Shown: positions 1 through 19,525 of the stretch, in pieces
How positions within the stretch are numbered: the first letter of the stretch is position 1
Layout: each line of letters starts with the position of its first letter
Assembly: GCA_046597055.1 (NCBI GenBank)
Contig: JBKJLC010000124.1
Span: 1 to 19,840 of the forward strand
Length of the DNA: 19,840 nt
Direction: 5' to 3'
From: Kofleriaceae bacterium
GTDB lineage: Bacteria > Myxococcota_A > Polyangia > Haliangiales > Haliangiaceae
Notes under the pieces: model-generated
What the model was told of the DNA's origin: nothing
The model's database searches: none
The model's input: the letters and a program-made list of their open reading frames with translations, nothing else
Program-made: the position numbers and the translations under genes

Positions 1-157
1 CATCGACCACCGCAAGTACCCGATTGGCAAGCGCGTGTCGAAGCTCGAGATGAAGGCGCTCAAAATCGAGCCCGACGCCTTCCACGGCGACTGGAACTAC
101 GTCATCCGGCCGCGATCGGCACCGCCATAGTCGTCGACTTATTCACTCGGGGGCCCT
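1..157 (+). mobile_element. Right end of an ISAzo13-family IS; probable terminal inverted repeat at about 138-157, probable 3-bp target duplication TAG at 158-160
   Basis: The transposase stop is followed by CTTATTCACTCGGGGGCCCT|TAG, resembling ISAzo13-type ends as I recall them. The partner IR is outside the window, so the boundary is uncertain by 1-3 bp. Confidence 0.75.
2..130 (+). CDS. C-terminal fragment of an ISAzo13-family (Rhodopirellula-type DDE) transposase, truncated by the window start
   Basis: Frame 2 reads IDHRKYPIGKRVSKLEMKALKIEPDAFHGDWNYVIRPRSAPP*. The YPxGxKV...FHGDWNYxIxP ending is what I recall as characteristic of ISAzo13-family transposases. Not in the ORF track. Confidence 0.88.
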   Translation: MDHRKYPIGKRVSKLEMKALKIEPDAFHGDWNYVIRPRSAPP

Positions 158-209
158 TAGTGCGCGAGAGCGCGAGCCGGCGGGGGCTGGGAGGAATCGA
201 GTGCTTCAT
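158..209 (-). pseudogene. 5' part of a second RiPP-precursor-like gene (MKHSIPPSPRRLALSRT...), interrupted by the IS
   Basis: Minus strand reads GGAGacccagATG AAG CAC TCG ATT CCT CCC AGC CCC CGC CGG CTC GCG CTC TCG CGC ACT A, then IS sequence. SD-like GGAG present; RRLALSRT resembles KRIALSLKRTT of the neighbouring precursor; upstream elements are shared with that gene. Confidence 0.65.
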
Positions 210-282
210 CTGGGTCTCCGGTGTCGTGGGCCGTGACTGCACCAGAGCGGTTGGCAGTCATGGGTAGAGTGGAGACGCTTGG

Positions 283-298
283 TGCAGCTATCACGCCG
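283..298 (-). promoter_or_regulatory. Putative sigma54 -24/-12 promoter for the interrupted precursor gene
   Basis: Minus strand CGGCGTGATAGCTGCA has GG-N10-GC spacing and resembles TGGCACG-N4-TTGCW; it ends about 74 nt upstream of the ATG at 209. Confidence 0.55.
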
Positions 299-911: not shown

Positions 912-6101
<5,190 letters not shown>

Positions 6102-6187
6102 TTCTCGCCGGCTCCGGTCGCGCGCGCGGCAACCGTGCGGTGGCAACTTTGCGACCGATGGCCCGGCGACGGCCAGCTCCTCCGCGG

Positions 6188-7432
6188 TCAGCGCCCGCCG
6201 CGGCCGTGCGTCCCGCCGGCGCCACCCGGCCGCGCCACCGGCAACCCGGCCGCGGTCACCAGGCTCTCGTCCTTCGTCCGGTCGCCGACCTCGACCGCAT
6301 CGAGATCATCGGGCGGCGCGGCGGTCATCAGGACCCGGAACGAGGTCCCCTGGCCCGGCGACGAGCTGACCAGGATGTTACCGCCGAGCTGCTTCACGAT
6401 CCCGTACACCACCGACAGCCCGAGCCCGGTGCCCTTGCCGATGGGCTTGGTCGTGAAGAACGGGTCGAAGATGCGGGCCATGACCGCGTCGTCCATGCCC
6501 GTCCCGGTGTCGCTCGCGACCAGCTCGACATAGTGGCCGCTGGCGGGCAGGTCCAGCGCGAACGCCTCGGTCCGTGACAGCATGAGCTCGCGGGCCCGGA
6601 TCGACAGCCGACCGCCGTCCGCCGTCGCGTCGCGGGCGTTGAGGATCAGGTTGAGCAGCACCTGGTGCAGATCGCCGGCCGAGCCGATCACGGCGAGGTC
6701 GCCAGCGATCTCGACCTCGAGCGTGATGCCGGGAAACGTACGCCGCGCCATCGCCGTGGTCTCTTCGATGATCGCGCTCACGTCGAGGCGGGTCGCGTCG
6801 GGCGCCGGATCGGTCCGCCCGAAGTGCATCAGGCGCTCGACGATCGCGCCGCCTTGCGCGATCGCGGTGCGCATGTCGGCCACCGCGGCTGGGTCAGGCG
6901 CACCCTCGGCCTCGGCCAGGAAGTCGACGTTCATCTGCAGCACGGTGAACAGGTTCTTGAAATCGTGAGCGAGCGAGCCCGCCAGCGAGCTGAGCGCCTG
7001 CAGCTTCTGGATCTGCTGGACCCGCTCGGCCAGCTCGTCCTGCTGCACGTACGAGAACAGGCTGCCGCCGATCTGCACGTGGTCATCCGGCTGGAGCCGA
7101 TGGTGCGTGATCCGCTCGACGTTCACGAACGTGCCGTTGGTGCTCCCCAGATCCTCGATGGCGAGGCCGTCGCCATCCGCGACCACCCGGGCATGGCGAC
7201 GCGAGACGTCGGTCCCTTCGAGGAAGATCTGCAGATCGGGGTCGCGACCGATCTCGGCAGGGAGCCGGTCGAGGCGGTAGACCCGACCGACCTCGGGGCC
7301 CGCGACGCAGACCAGTCGTCCCTCCACAGGTCGCCGGACCAACGCCTGGTCGCGGCGGGTTGGCATCTTGCCGACCGAGGTCGCCTCCGGCTCCGGAGCG
7401 TCCACCTCGGAACGTTTCACGCGTTCCGCCAT
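6188..7432 (-). CDS. FHA-domain histidine kinase (FHA-HisKA-HATPase_c)
   Basis: FHA motifs IGR, VSRRHA, DLGSTNGTFVN. H-box LAHDFKN; N-box QVLLNLILNARDA; G1 DTGTGM; F/G2 FDPFFTTKPIGKGTGLGL. Confidence 0.93.
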   Translation of the reverse strand: MAERVKRSEVDAPEPEATSVGKMPTRRDQALVRRPVEGRLVCVAGPEVGRVYRLDRLPAEIGRDPDLQIFLEGTDVSRRHARVVADGDGLAIEDLGSTNGTFVNVERITHHRLQPDDHVQIGGSLFSYVQQDELAERVQQIQKLQALSSLAGSLAHDFKNLFTVLQMNVDFLAEAEGAPDPAAVADMRTAIAQGGAIVERLMHFGRTDPAPDATRLDVSAIIEETTAMARRTFPGITLEVEIAGDLAVIGSAGDLHQVLLNLILNARDATADGGRLSIRARELMLSRTEAFALDLPASGHYVELVASDTGTGMDDAVMARIFDPFFTTKPIGKGTGLGLSVVYGIVKQLGGNILVSSSPGQGTSFRVLMTAAPPDDLDAVEVGDRTKDESLVTAAGLPVARPGGAGGTHGRGGR

Positions 7433-12248: not shown

Positions 12249-12704
12249 TCAGGCCGGCGGGTCGCGCACGACCAGCGGCTGGCCCTCGTCGACGAAGCTG
12301 AGCGACGCCGAGTTGAGGCAGTAGCGCAGGCCCGACGGTCGCGGCCCGTCGTCGAACACGTGGCCGAGGTGGCCGTCGCAGCGCGCGCACCGGATCTCGG
12401 TCCGCCGCATGCCGTGGCTCTCGTCGACGATCGAGCGCACGTGGGCCGGATCGAACGGCGCGAAGAAGCTGGGCCAGCCGGTGCCCGACTCGAACTTGGC
12501 GTCGGAGCGAAACAGCGGCAGCCCGCACAGGCGGCAGCCGTAGGTGCCCGCCTTCTTGTTGTCGAGGAACACGCCGCAACCCGGCCGCTCGGTGCCGTGT
12601 TGCAAGATCACGCGCCGCTCCTCGGGCGCGAGGTCGGTGGCGAGCGCGTCGATCTGGGCCTCGCCGAGGCGAGTGAGGTCGTAGCCGGACGCCGAGCGGA
12701 TCAT
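12249..12704 (-). CDS. msrB: Peptide-methionine (R)-S-oxide reductase
   Basis: GTERP, CRLC and CARC zinc pairs, [22 protein letters not shown], catalytic RYCLNS. Confidence 0.96.
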
Positions 12705-13486
12705 GGTGATGGGGAGCCTAGCGCGGCTCGGCCGATGCGCAGCAGGTCGGCCTCCAGCGGCTGGCCTTCGACCCGCGGCGCGACCGCGCTGCGCGGATGC
12801 GGCGCGTGGCGTGGCGACCAGCGCGCCTCGGGCACCACCAGCGACAGCGCCCAGGTCCGGCGCGGGGTGGCGGTCAGGTTGCGCGGCGACCGGTGCCACA
12901 GGTACGTGTGGTGCGCGATCGCGCCGCCGGCCGCGGTCGGCGCCGCCACCCCGGGCTGGTCGGGCCCGACCTCGATCGGCGGCAGCGCCGCGCGCGGATC
13001 GTCGTCGCCGGCCAGGCCCCAGCTGGCGCGCCGCTCGCCCAGGTGATGGGTGCCGAGCAGGTAGTAGAGGCACCCGTTGTCGAGGGTGACGTCGTCGAGC
13101 GCGATCCACAGCGTCAGACCGTCGGGTCGATCGAGCGGCAGGTACGAGAAGTCCTGGTGCCAGTCCAGGTCGTCGCCGCCGCCGTGCTTGACGAGCAGGT
13201 GGTCATGGAAGAGGACGAGCGCCGGGATCCCGAGCGCCGCGCACGCGACCTCGGCGACCGCGGGCACCAGCGCCGCCAGCACCGGCGACTGGCGCCAGGG
13301 GTCGTGCACGATGCCCGCGTAGGGGCCGGTCACGCACTGGCCGAGCAGATCATCGAACGCGGCGCGGGCCGCCGCCAGCTGCCCACGATCGAGCACCGGC
13401 CCCAGCGCCGCCGCGCCATCGGCGGCGAACACCGCGGCCGGATCGGCAGCGGCCTCACCGGGACTCGGCCACGTCGCGCACGGCAT
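12701..13486 (-). CDS. Phytanoyl-CoA dioxygenase (PhyH)-family Fe(II)/2-oxoglutarate dioxygenase
   Basis: WHQD (HxD), [17 protein letters not shown]...GTH, distal WHRSPRN...RR. Its TGA overlaps the msrB ATG (ATGA). Confidence 0.9.
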
Positions 13487-13523
13487 GCTGCATGCTAGCG
13501 CGAACCGCGCCGCGGCCCGGGCC

Positions 13524-13925
13524 TTACAGCCCCACGAGCGGCGTCGCGCTCACGGTCCAGTTGTAGTTGCACTGCTCCGGCGGCCCGTCGGTCACCAGCG
13601 CAAAGCTGGCGGTCGCCGTGCCGTAGAGGTCGGGGCCGGTCTGGCGCAGCCGGTAGGCGATCGCGGGCGCCGCGGCGGGTCCGGTCGCGGTCGCGGGCCA
13701 GGACTCGGGCATCACGAACGACAGCTGGGGGATCGACACCGCGGTCCCCGGCTCCTCGGCCTCTTCGTACACGACGTCGGTGCCCACGGCAGCGGCCCTG
13801 AAGACGCGGTAGCCGGCGTCGGGATCGCCGCGGCAACCAGGTCGTCGTGATTCCGCTCCCCTGGCGACCACGCCGGCAGCCTTTGCCGCGCAACCGCGAC
13901 ATCGGCGCCAGAGGCCAGCGTCCAT
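13524..13925 (-). CDS. Hypothetical protein or 3' gene remnant
   Basis: The last ~100 codons are protein-like (YRVFRAAAVGTDVVYEE...QCNYNWTVSATP) with mostly G/C-ending codons; the first ~30 codons are not, and no convincing RBS was seen. Confidence 0.45.
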   Translation of the reverse strand: MDAGLWRRCRGCAAKAAGVVARGAESRRPGCRGDPDAGYRVFRAAAVGTDVVYEEAEEPGTAVSIPQLSFVMPESWPATATGPAAAPAIAYRLRQTGPDLYGTATASFALVTDGPPEQCNYNWTVSATPLVGL

Positions 13926-13948
13926 CGCCCGCGTGCGATGATGCGGCG

Positions 13949-15967
13949 ATGCGGGTGGTGGTGGGCCAGTTCGAGGGCATCGACGCGACCCCGGTGCTGC
14001 CGCTTGCCGCCGGCTGCCTGGTCGCGTCGGCGCGCATGGATCCCGAGCTGGCCCGACGCGCGCACTTCGACATCGAGCTCGCGCGCCGGCCGATCGCCGA
14101 CGCGGTCGCCAGCTACCATCGCCCCGACCTGCTCGGCTTCTCGCTGTATCCGTGGAACGCCGCCTACTCGCTGGCGGTGGCCGCCGCCGCCCGCGCCGCC
14201 CATCCTGATTGCCTGATCGTCGCCGGCGGCCCGTCGGTGCCGCGCCGGCCCGAGCTGGCCCGCCGCTTCCTCGACGAGCACCCCGCGCTCGACGTCCTGG
14301 CGTTCGCGGAGGGCGAGCTGACCTTCCGCGCGCTGGCCCGCGCCCACCTGGACGGCACCGCGCTCGACGCGATCCCCGGAATCGCCGTGCGCGGCCCCGG
14401 CGGCGCGCACCGCCTCACCAGCCCGCCCGGGCGCGTCCACGACTTCACCGCGACCGCGTCGCCGTACCTCGACGGCACCTTCGACGAGCTGTTCGCGCGC
14501 CACCGCGCACGCTTCAGCATGGCGCTGTGCGAGACCAACCGCGGCTGCCCGTTCTCGTGCACGTTCTGCGACTGGTCGCTGACCAAGAAGGTCGTCGAGT
14601 TCCCGCTCGAGCGGGTCCACGCCGAGCTCGACTGGGTGGTCGCGCACGGCTTCCACCACGTCATGCTGGCCGACGCCAACTTCGGCATCCGGCCGCGCGA
14701 CCCGGCGATCGCCCGGCGGCTGGTCGAGCTGCGCCGGCGCACCGGCGCGCCGCGCACGTTCTACTTCTACCTCACCAAGAACAACCACCAGCGCAACCTC
14801 GAGACCATCGAGATCCTGCAGGCCGGCGACATCGGCTGCTGGGTCGGCCTCGCGGTCCAGGACTTCGACGACGGCGTGCTCGAGGCGGTCAAGCGCGACA
14901 ACATCCAGACCGGTGAGTCGATGCAGCTGCGCAGCCTCTGCGGCGAGCGCGGCATCCCCACCTTCAACGAGCTGATCCTCGGGCTGCCCGGCCAGACCTT
15001 CGCGTCGTTCACCGCGACCATCGCGACCGCGATGCCGGCCCTGCCCCGCCACGACTTCGTGCTGTTCATGTGCCGGCTGATCGACAACACCGAGCTCGGC
15101 GATCCGGCTTCGCGCGCGCGGTTCGGGCTCGAGACCCGCCGCTGCCAGTGGAAGACCTCGACCGCCGACTGGGATCCGATCGTCGACGAGTACCAGGAGG
15201 TCGTGGTCGCGACCCACGACCTGCCGCTGGCCGACTGGCGGCGCGCCTACCGGTTCGCCTTCCTGGCCGCCGCGTTCTACAACCTGCGCCTGCTCCGGGT
15301 CGTACTCCATCACGTCATCGACGCGACCGGGCTCGACCTGCGCGACTACCTCACGCACCTCGCCGATCGACTCACCAGCGCCGCGCCCGGCTCGGTCTAC
15401 GCCGAGCTCGACGCGATCGTCGAGCGCTACCTCGCATCGCTGCTCGGGTGCGGCCCGTTCGTCCTCCCGCTCGACCTCGGCGCCGACCCGACCGCGCCGT
15501 CGGGCCCCGCCGTGCCGGTGCCGGTCGACGAAGCGATCACGATCGCCGCGTTGCGCCGCTATCCCGACTTCCTGGCCGAGACCGAGGCCCACACCCGGCG
15601 CTTCCTCGCCGCCGCCAACCAGGCCGCGGTCCCGACCCTGGCCGAGGCGTTCCGCTACCAGGCGCTGACCACCCCGCGCTGGCAGGTGACCGAGCCGGTG
15701 GTCGCGCGCCTCGATCACGACTGGCCGAGCTACGTCGCCGCCGGTGGCAGCGGCGCCGCCCTGGTCGCGCGCCCGACCTCGGTGCGCTTCGTGCCGCCGA
15801 CCTACGCGGCGGTCCCGTCGTTCGCCACCTTCGCCATCACCCACCAGGCCTGCATCCGGGCCCGCCTCGACGTCGGGGTGGTCGAGCCGGTCGATCGCGC
15901 CGCCCTGCCCGGGCAACCCGGCCGGCCCCGGGCTCGCAGCCTGGTCGTCCTGCCCACCAGCGGCTGA
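13949..15967 (+). CDS. Cobalamin-binding radical SAM protein (class B methyltransferase-like)
   Basis: N-terminal B12-binding pattern (LPLAAGCL, PDLLGFSLYPWN, IVAGGP, EGE), SPYL, then ETNRGCPFSCTFCDW (CxxxCxxC), DANFG, ELILGLPGQT, and a long C-terminal extension. Start at ATG 13949 inferred. Confidence 0.92.
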   Translation: MRVVVGQFEGIDATPVLPLAAGCLVASARMDPELARRAHFDIELARRPIADAVASYHRPDLLGFSLYPWNAAYSLAVAAAARAAHPDCLIVAGGPSVPRRPELARRFLDEHPALDVLAFAEGELTFRALARAHLDGTALDAIPGIAVRGPGGAHRLTSPPGRVHDFTATASPYLDGTFDELFARHRARFSMALCETNRGCPFSCTFCDWSLTKKVVEFPLERVHAELDWVVAHGFHHVMLADANFGIRPRDPAIARRLVELRRRTGAPRTFYFYLTKNNHQRNLETIEILQAGDIGCWVGLAVQDFDDGVLEAVKRDNIQTGESMQLRSLCGERGIPTFNELILGLPGQTFASFTATIATAMPALPRHDFVLFMCRLIDNTELGDPASRARFGLETRRCQWKTSTADWDPIVDEYQEVVVATHDLPLADWRRAYRFAFLAAAFYNLRLLRVVLHHVIDATGLDLRDYLTHLADRLTSAAPGSVYAELDAIVERYLASLLGCGPFVLPLDLGADPTAPSGPAVPVPVDEAITIAALRRYPDFLAETEAHTRRFLAAANQAAVPTLAEAFRYQALTTPRWQVTEPVVARLDHDWPSYVAAGGSGAALVARPTSVRFVPPTYAAVPSFATFAITHQACIRARLDVGVVEPVDRAALPGQPGRPRARSLVVLPTSG

Positions 15968-18522: not shown

Positions 18523-18596
18523 TCGGGTGGCGAGTCGGCCCGCGGTCTTCGTGACCGCGGCCGACCGCGCAGCCTCTGGCATTGTGCGGTGGCGAT

Positions 18597-18611
18597 CGGC
18601 ACCTACGTTGC
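18597..18611 (+). promoter_or_regulatory. Putative sigma54 promoter for the downstream lipoprotein
   Basis: CGGCAC-CTACG-TTGC differs from TGGCAC-N5-TTGC by one base; it ends about 60 nt before ATG 18671. Confidence 0.6.
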
Positions 18612-18670
18612 GCAGCTCGCGCGGCGCGCGGTACCGGACTGGTGGCCCTCGTTCACCGGAGAACCGCGCA

Positions 18671-19525
18671 ATGAGATCTCTTCTGCTCGTCTCGCTCGCG
18701 TTCGCGACCACCGCCGCCTGCCTCGATGTCGACGATGACGTCGCCGAGGTGCCCGGCACCACCGCCGCCGCGGCGCTCACCAGCTGCGTCGGCGACGTCG
18801 CCGTCAGCGGCGGCGTGCCTGCCTACCAGACCTGGTTCGGCTTCTTGCCGCGCGACGTCTCACCCGACCAGGTCTGGGTGTCGTTCCCGCTCGACGCCAG
18901 CCGCTCGCAGTACGCGGCGTTCCAGGTCGACTGGCGCTCGGGCCGGGTGACCTGGGCGACCAAGGTGGCGGCCTGGCAGCGCCCGGTCCTGCTGGGCATC
19001 ATGGCCGGCGCGACCGGTCGTGTGAGCGCGGTGCAGACCCCACCGCCGCCGCCGCCGGCCGGTACCAGCTGGGCCAAGTTCCTGGTCGCGTACGCCAAGG
19101 GCGTTCATCTCGCATACGACAACGCGGGGACCGCCGCGTCCTGCACCGGCGCGTTCACGCCGACCGGCACCGTGCCGGCGTACAGCCTCTGGCTCGGGAC
19201 CCTGCCGCCCCGGGTCTCCGATCACCAGATGTACGTGTACCGGCCGCTCGACGACACCGGTCGCGAGTTCGCGGCCTTCCAGATCGACCTGGTGCGCTCG
19301 CAGGTCACGTGGGCGACCAAGGTCTCGGCCCTGCAGGTGCCGTTCCTGGTCGGTCAGATGGCCGCCGATGGGATCAGCCGGGTCACCGGCATCCGCAAGC
19401 CGCCGCCGCCGCCCCCGCCGATCGGCACCGACTGGCTGATCGGCTTCGGTCGCCTCGGGCACTTCTCGTTCGAGGACGGCCTGAACATCGGCGGCCTCCC
19501 GACCCGCGGCTTCGAGCGGATGTAG
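18671..19525 (+). CDS. Uncharacterised lipoprotein with two tandem ~119-aa domains, each containing a poly-proline run
   Basis: GGAG RBS; signal MRSLLLVSLAFATTAAC with lipobox-like Cys; clear internal duplication. Confidence 0.82.
   Translation: MRSLLLVSLAFATTAACLDVDDDVAEVPGTTAAAALTSCVGDVAVSGGVPAYQTWFGFLPRDVSPDQVWVSFPLDASRSQYAAFQVDWRSGRVTWATKVAAWQRPVLLGIMAGATGRVSAVQTPPPPPPAGTSWAKFLVAYAKGVHLAYDNAGTAASCTGAFTPTGTVPAYSLWLGTLPPRVSDHQMYVYRPLDDTGREFAAFQIDLVRSQVTWATKVSALQVPFLVGQMAADGISRVTGIRKPPPPPPPIGTDWLIGFGRLGHFSFEDGLNIGGLPTRGFERM
18782..19435 (+). repeat. Intragenic tandem duplication with 357-nt offset (units start at about 18782 and 19139)
   Basis: Both units follow SC-x9-VPAY..W.G.LP..VS..Q..V..PLD......AAFQ.D......VTWATKV...PPPPPP.GT.W. 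Confidence 0.9.

Follow-up and report, generated by a model that had tools for sequence, protein, structure and literature searches.

An ISAzo13-family insertion sequence within the leader of a double-glycine peptide precursor gene in a kinase-rich cassette of a Kofleriaceae bacterium

P2, a real double-glycine precursor gene of the class I lanthipeptide type, has been inactivated by a multi-copy ISAzo13 element inserted at a TAA inside its leader. The window in which its 5' half was found is the whole of one contig (C299 in our numbering; 19,840 nucleotides, forward strand of JBKJLC010000124.1, assembly GCA_046597055.1 of a Kofleriaceae bacterium). A first-pass annotation of this DNA had proposed a second precursor gene cut inside its leader by such an element, and the proposal stood: the element matches the transposase profile PF07592 at 31.4 bits, and the reconstructed empty site continues in frame. 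The best overall explanation that we can offer, comprising the split gene, its cassette, maturation in trans, export and kinase-sigma54 control, appears reasonably likely as a whole. The assembly (G000; 8.4 Mb, 72% G+C) consists of 303 contigs and is 94% complete and 7.6% contaminated, and therefore "a single LanB and LanC" and "the same cell" are assumptions wherever they are used below.

The right end of the element occupies positions 1 to 156 on the plus strand and is truncated by the contig start. It comprises the last 42 codons of the transposase (2..130, plus strand, transcribed against the peptide cassette), with the match to PF07592 (DDE_Tnp_ISAZ013 transposase) at positions 2-127 lying above the cut-off of 26.9 bits, and a 23-bp right terminal inverted repeat (134..156) that stops at 156 (..GGGCCC). 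The same 23 terminal bases, with 1 mismatch, are found at two left-end stubs, C190:1-114 and the end of contig C31, each followed by TAA, and these are the only such stubs among the 606 contig ends. An intact relative of 1,333 bp (L118:631-1963), whose full-length transposase (L118:708-1934) scores 448 bits, is 86% identical to the window over 157 bases (3-159) and, at its left end, 85% identical to C190:1-117; it has TTA on either side. From the stubs and from L118, the element ends at 156 and the duplicated triplet is 157-159, read as TAA on the minus and TTA on the plus strand, with its second copy at C190:115-117. By sequence comparison, L118 thus confirms the predicted ends and a 3-bp duplication, and the CTA/TAG duplication first suggested was one base off.

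The middle of the element, about 1.06 kb, is absent from the assembly, and its left 114 bases form the start of C190. From a read contig of 1,295 bases whose end lies at window position 117, the full element at the P2 site is calculated at ~1,334 bases, against 1,333 for L118. In three DNA runs from one study, two of which are possibly the source of the assembly, the element is covered ~8 to 12 times as deeply as its flank, so that further copies must exist that are missing from the assembly; other insertion sites in these reads show the same element end followed by TAA or TTA. Members of the ISAzo13 family are about 1.33 kb long, have inverted repeats starting with GG and generate a 3-bp A+T-rich duplication. 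The element at P2 has such repeats and such a duplication as well as the PF07592 transposase match, its calculated length would agree, and no difference from the family was found for it, whereas short derivatives of 158 bp in the same genome mostly lack a perfect duplication. These short elements with ISAzo13-type ends are located at C95:1942-2099, C121:32531-32688, C168:1480-1637 and C182:33010-33167, with further copies at C269:22364-22521 and C269:23986-24144. Most have TNA on both flanks, a perfect 3-bp duplication is present in 1 of the 6, and the middle base often differs; the mismatched flanks might stem from decay, from recombination between copies or from an unusual cut. Among all related ISAzo13-type ends of the genome, 16 of 23 are followed by TNA. 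A second, distinct ISAzo13 remnant (C139:51764-52216; L001, L005) consists of a C-terminal transposase part and a right end; TAA follows this end, and no left end lies close by.

The 5' half of P2 (157..209, minus strand) consists of 17 codons starting at an ATG (209-207), six bases downstream of a GGAG ribosome-binding site (216..219, minus strand). Both this start and the stop of the chimeric frame at 102-104, inside the element, had been read correctly in the first-pass annotation. Removal of the element and of one TAA joins the 5' half to C190:116-262 (L003) and gives an ORF of 65 amino acids in all, with a 33-residue leader and a 32-residue core. The leader reads LxLxRT-N-LRxL...GG, the junction being followed by Asn-Leu-Arg-Leu and the Gly-Gly ending at residue 33. 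Because the duplication is TAA, the motif is RT-N-LR instead of RT-T-LR, and the second Thr that had been foreseen is an Asn; a TNA target in the frame of P2 makes a Thr codon impossible at this position. The prediction of an RTTL(R)xL...GG sequence followed by a short core was thus borne out for the in-frame LRxL and the Gly-Gly, and not for the Thr or for the core, which at 32 residues is not short. This core contains 1 Ser, 3 Thr and 2 Cys, with a Thr before each Cys and the two Cys five residues apart, and its length is typical of the family (median of 31 residues over 58 cores).

The junction was examined by joining the 5' half to each of the two stubs, the overlap being varied from 0 to 5 bases. 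On a leader model built from 5 intact paralogues, P2 being left out, the C190 junction with a 3-base overlap scored 14.3 bits and 12 alternatives scored at most 5.6. Duplications of 0, 1, 2, 4 and 5 bases were ruled out, as they give no leader motif. As a null set, the 5' half was also joined to all 5,302 TAA sites of the genome, and C190:115 ranked first with both leader models, at 21.8 bits (next 13.2) and 14.3 bits (next 13.4); the two models were built without P2 and we regard them as independent. The joined P2 was scored against these leader models of our own only.

These results strongly support the view that C299 and C190 are neighbours separated in the assembly at a collapsed element, a join that no single read bridges. 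It is also supported by the gene content of C190, which carries two further precursors with the same leader and an exporter, and whose first gene, K2, has the K1 gene of the window as its closest relative (63%, the next being 46%, among 8,000 scored database candidates; K1 and K2 are 62% identical over 751 residues). Instead, the far flank might belong to C31 or to a copy missing from the assembly, or recombination between copies of the element might have united the two flanks, and several observations would agree with this: the lack of a bridging read, the multi-copy nature of the element, the TAA at the C31 stub and the unmatched flanking triplets of 5 of the 6 short related elements. Against it stand the first rank of C190 among the 5,302 TAA sites, the tandem paralogy of K1 and K2 with a same-strand gene order, and the C31 junction itself, which gives a frame of only 34 residues with no leader motif and 4.6-6.3 bits, and beyond which the C31 flank, read by eye, leads into an apparent histidine-kinase fragment. 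We consider such a false join highly improbable and the split gene with the proposed join almost certain.

The first-pass annotation had pointed to empty-site reads or related genomes as a further source of evidence, and neither yielded any. No bridging contig or read, no empty-site allele and no loose end entering at 157-160 was detected in the three DNA runs; as read contigs drop rare variants, the missing empty site is no proof that the insertion is fixed. Among the runs listed as holding the sequence, none was an RNA run. No orthologous locus was found in 40 relatives, nor in viral contigs searched with the WD40 region of K2.

The question of whether P2 was functional when the element arrived bears on what the insertion removed. 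The gene may already have been decaying, the insertion then removing nothing functional. In line with this, P2 has an Asn at a position where all 59 high-scoring relatives, a set biased by having been picked by score, have Thr, Ser or Ala; it has the lowest family score among the ATG-started members of the genome (21.8 bits versus 30 to 43.5 for the others, which are, however, seeds of the model); the promoter-like site before it is weak; and no orthologue was found in 137 family genomes, in which its core gave chance-level matches only. However, the frame is open from the ribosome-binding site and ATG to the stop with no other lesion, its third-position G+C (0.82-0.83) is like that of P1 (0.85), and the residues at -4, -7 and -12, the Gly-Gly and the Cys/Thr core of 32 residues are all retained. 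As the family cores are hypervariable, missing orthologues are usual. Prior decay is thus rather improbable, and we favour the loss of an intact gene: after the insertion P2 would yield only a dead-end chimera of 35 residues and its core would be left without a start, whereas the other precursors remain.

On the joined contigs, the order of the intact cassette, all on one strand, is K1, P1, the split P2, K2, a third kinase gene, an FHA-sigma54 activator gene, a C39-peptidase ABC exporter gene, an HlyD gene, P3 and P4. The neighbouring precursor noted in the first-pass annotation, with the motif quoted there, is P1 (495..713, minus strand; 72 residues), which has a 27-residue leader ending at a Gly-Gly site and a 45-residue core with 3 Cys, and which is one of the seeds of the family leader model and reaches 39 bits on it. 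K1 (912..6146, minus strand; start codon uncertain) encodes a Ser/Thr kinase followed by an nSTAND1 NTPase, a hydrophobic stretch and WD40 propellers, and has K2 as its closest relative among the scored candidates. K2, with a kinase, a hydrophobic stretch and a WD40 region, starts 74 bases after the stop of P2; hydrophobic stretches were located with a simple 19-residue hydropathy window. Upstream of K1, a gene for an FHA-domain histidine kinase (6188..7432, minus strand), recognised by domain search, is a candidate member of the cassette. The tandem precursor array expected beyond the element was found in part: P3 and P4 (C190:11332 and C190:11528) have the same leader, but they lie 11 kb further on, behind the exporter, and do not form a continuous array with P2.

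In an alignment of K1, K2 and 10 relatives (A4), the WD40 regions share at their end a conserved tail, Cys...Pro-x-x-Cys, a feature that would suit a periplasmic disulfide. Elsewhere in the window, positions 12701-15967 contain genes for a divergent PhyH-family dioxygenase and a B12-dependent radical SAM protein, and positions 18527-19525 an ORF of 332 residues with a lipoprotein-like start, two internal repeats ending in proline runs and no Pfam match. The B12 radical SAM gene (13847-15967) and the PhyH gene were considered as maturases and not adopted: they lie 13 kb away, and the best match is to a KedN5-type methyltransferase at 225 bits against a cut-off of 700. Such genes were not seen beside the precursors of relatives in annotated loci, a reference set that lacks them and thus is no real test.

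The cassette exporter contains a C39 peptidase domain (PF03412, 115 bits) with visible Cys, His and Asp motifs, together with PF00664 and PF00005, and the membrane fusion protein of the locus matches HlyD_3. According to the available text of PMC10885120, exporters of this type (PCATs) read hydrophobic residues at -4, -7 and -12 before the cleavage site; by this rule, the corresponding residues are Ala, Leu and Leu in P2 and Val, Ile and Leu in P1. The same text allows a comparison with PCAT/AMS exporters such as LahT, with which the cassette shares the C39 domain, the ABC transporter, several precursors with conserved leaders and diverse cores, and the hydrophobic -4, -7 and -12 positions; it differs in its Gram-negative layout with HlyD and in that cleavage is here predicted, and the LahT-type clusters are class II related. 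The exporter would cut after the Gly-Gly and secrete the cores, and export by this local transporter is very probable.

A leader model of 14 sequences matched over 500 places in 67 of the 138 family genomes. In the genome itself, eight intact family precursors reach 21 bits or more, seven of them being seeds of the model; among the 10 neighbours scanned of the five that lie outside the cassette, no modifying enzyme was found. A weak, Cys-free member without an ATG (C219:7635-7766, L019; 21.9 bits) adjoins an IS21-like gene pair, as judged by eye, and is perhaps a second precursor damaged by insertion. At C145:25702-27032, a Gly-Gly precursor of 49 residues with a core end rich in Ser, Cys, Gly and Asp lies directly behind a gene for a product of 377 residues, probably as a separate RiPP system.

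Leaders of the form LxLxKx5L...Gly-Gly, with C39 exporters, have been described for class I precursors of Bacteroidetes in the available text of Walker et al. 2020 (PMC7268733). With these pinensin-related precursors (NF038153, PF28317), the present family shares the basic N-terminus, the LxLx[KR]xT[LIV]xxL motif, the Gly-Gly end, the C39 exporter in the cluster, cores of Ser, Thr and Cys, and LanB/LanC in related loci. In contrast to the Bacteroidetes clusters, the host is a kinase-rich soil bacterium with an 8.4-Mb genome of 72% G+C, the locus lacks LanB and LanC, and the precursors are dispersed beside receptor-like kinases and FHA-sigma54 activators, an arrangement not mentioned in the available text of PMC7268733 (WD40: 0 occurrences in the main text). 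The class I lanthipeptide model NF038153 matched P1 at 13.4 bits, below its cut-off of 22, and gave no match with the P2 halves, P3 or P4, whereas 10 of the 14 seed members of the family matched at E <= 0.5, the best at 1e-6. Leads from the Atlas, at 0.84-0.85, point to PF28317 clusters. A Ser or Thr precedes a Cys in 53 of 58 family cores.

The maturases expected further along the locus were not found: C190 carries none, and no LanB, LanC, LanM or YcaO gene was detected in the joined locus. We therefore do not class the locus, which lacks LanB and LanC, among the class I clusters; it would work like one only if its peptides were modified in trans. The genome has one LanB (C42) and one LanC (C279), and no match to LanM or YcaO, the LanM result being a weak blank since the LanM control matched nowhere. 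At C42:1-5449 (L053), the LanB gene is followed by a GAF-HlyD gene and a cut C39 transporter gene, and at C279:149-6725 (L052) the LanC gene is flanked by a kinase-propeller gene on one side and by an FHA-sigma54 activator gene on the other; no precursor was found adjoining either. In our proposal, this single LanB and LanC would dehydrate and ring-close the cores in trans, which we regard as somewhat favoured by the comparisons that follow.

Genomes and loci related to this one bear on the alternative that the cassette peptides are not lanthipeptides and are exported unmodified or disulfide-bonded, the leader being kept only as an export tag. Of the 67 genomes that carry the leader family, 58 also have a LanB match, versus 16 of the 71 that lack it, a comparison made by hand in which kinship overstates independence; the unpublished genomes G073 and G074 enter the LanB and leader tallies only as counts. 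Where a genome has 20 to 36 leader matches, its LanB matches number only 1 to 5, so that processing in trans would be the rule if the leaders are substrates. These figures, together with the kinase-propeller and FHA-sigma54 activator genes that flank the C279 LanC, speak against the alternative. In its favour, the locus has no maturase, 5 of the 58 cores are Cys-free, the two Cys of P2 could form a disulfide, and 9 of the 67 leader-bearing genomes have no LanB match, although 5 of these 9 have weak leader matches only (E > 0.01). The best-match loci, one from each of 30 genomes and extending 1.5 kb on each side, can be read both ways: LanB or LanC is present in 9 of 30 (7 of 26 without the own genome and the three seed genomes) and neither in the remaining 21. 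We consider peptides that are not lanthipeptides unlikely, and modification by LanB and LanC in trans is retained as the preferred reading. Two of the related loci resemble the cassette with the enzymes included: G007:C574 adds LanB and LanC to the gene set of the cassette, and the order in G001:C1197 is kinase-WD40, precursor, LanC, LanB.

FHA-sigma54 activators answer to Ser/Thr kinases in myxobacteria. The regions before the precursor genes were inspected for sigma54-type sites, scored against the sigma54 consensus. A site with at least 9 of 11 consensus positions was found within 150 bases before 15 of 55 precursors of relatives. The 55 reverse strands had none, and the rate was 1.8% in 1,100 shuffles and 3.8% in 1,388 genes of the own genome. 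The best sites of 12 of the 55 end 13-16 bases before the ATG (by eye, ties being given to the nearest site), and the same holds for P3, C65 and C88. In the window, P1 and P2 are preceded by weak sites, matching the consensus at 6 and 7 of 11 positions; that of P2 is a GG-N10-GC sequence at 284..298 on the minus strand, 74 bases before the gene, and is not significant alone. A scan of positions 100-950 for sigma70 promoters and terminators found nothing. An external cue would be perceived by the membrane kinases via their WD40 domains and relayed by Thr phosphorylation to the FHA-sigma54 activator, which, once switched on, would drive the sigma54 promoters before the precursor genes. Such control is likely for the precursor family, on the evidence of promoter sequences, and for P2 itself it is conceivable, at somewhat less than even chances.

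The precursors and the kinase-WD40 genes appear to be associated beyond this locus. A WD40 gene was found within 1.5 kb in 9 of the 30 best-match loci, always directly upstream and on the same strand. Without the own and the three seed genomes the count was 7 of 26, compared with 0 of 200 random windows of the own genome, a control that understates the rate for relatives richer in WD40 genes (30 genes per 10 Mb would, by arithmetic, give ~2%). All seven of the neighbours followed up encode a kinase, a hydrophobic stretch and a WD40 region, three of them (L092, L093, L095) looking like kin, and in 5 of the 7 loci a sigma54 activator lies directly beside the kinase or the precursor. Thirteen further loci were inspected, 2 of them chosen after WD40 matches nearby had already been seen; the 11 picked blind had 1 kinase-WD40 neighbour, 4 another kinase and 2 LanB. 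In two loci, L056 (G004:C122) and L057 (G001:C1525), the kinase-WD40 gene and the precursor are followed by erythromycin-esterase-family genes (PF05139) with lipoprotein-like starts, which may be partners acting in tailoring, immunity or degradation.

Peptide, exporter, membrane sensor and regulator are thus encoded together here, and the arrangement recurs in relatives. Three-component peptide circuits are known from NisA/NisK/NisR and ComC/ComD/ComE. With these and with the Myxococcus FHA-sigma54 activators, the cassette shares an exported Gly-Gly or lanthionine peptide, an exporter, a membrane sensor and an activator in one cassette. In place of a histidine kinase and a response regulator, however, the adjoining sensors are Hanks-type Ser/Thr kinases with an outer WD40 region and the output is an FHA-sigma54 activator, and the binding of peptide to sensor is hypothetical. 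We tentatively propose that the outer WD40 region of the neighbouring kinase has the secreted double-glycine (lanthi)peptide as its ligand; the kinase would signal via the FHA-sigma54 activator to the peptide's own sigma54 promoter, a module that may be likened to the peptide and receptor-like kinase pairs of plants. Its chief support is the WD40 gene directly upstream in the best-match loci, kinase-type in all seven cases, against none in the random windows; against it, only 2 of the 10 kinase-WD40 genes of the own genome have a precursor neighbour, and most precursors have no kinase-WD40 neighbour. The co-location is explained as well by a kinase that induces a weapon in answer to another cue. 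A predicted complex of the K1 WD40 region and the P1 core scored 0.00, which is no answer and speaks neither for nor against binding. If the peptides are indeed the ligands, K1 and K2 would represent a pair of receptors that arose by recent duplication, P1 and P2 would be their ligands in the course of divergence, and the insertion would amount to the natural knock-out of a ligand.

Kinase-TM-WD40 proteins with predicted periplasmic WD40 regions have been described, with no ligands named in the available text of PMC11032199. In the literature covered, in which subscription journals are largely absent, we found no description of the pairing of kinase-WD40 genes with precursors or of such a class I family in myxobacteria, although the supplementary family tables of Walker et al. 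may already hold myxobacterial members.

As a knock-out by insertion, the event itself is ordinary, since insertion sequences disrupt small genes all the time; the recurring and putatively functional pairing of precursors with receptor-like kinases is the interesting part. The reconstruction orders two contigs into a cassette of ~20 kb and recovers a precursor that is invisible to gene callers. The cassette points to a large and mostly unannotated precursor family that seems to share one or a few LanB/LanC pairs per genome and would be a source of new lanthipeptides. With its peptide genes beside membrane sensor kinases, an arrangement that is common among uncultured soil bacteria of myxobacterial type, it may represent an undescribed peptide signalling circuit. 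If the peptides are the ligands of the kinase-WD40 proteins, an expanded class of bacterial receptor-like kinases would gain its first ligands, and ready peptide-receptor pairs would be at hand.
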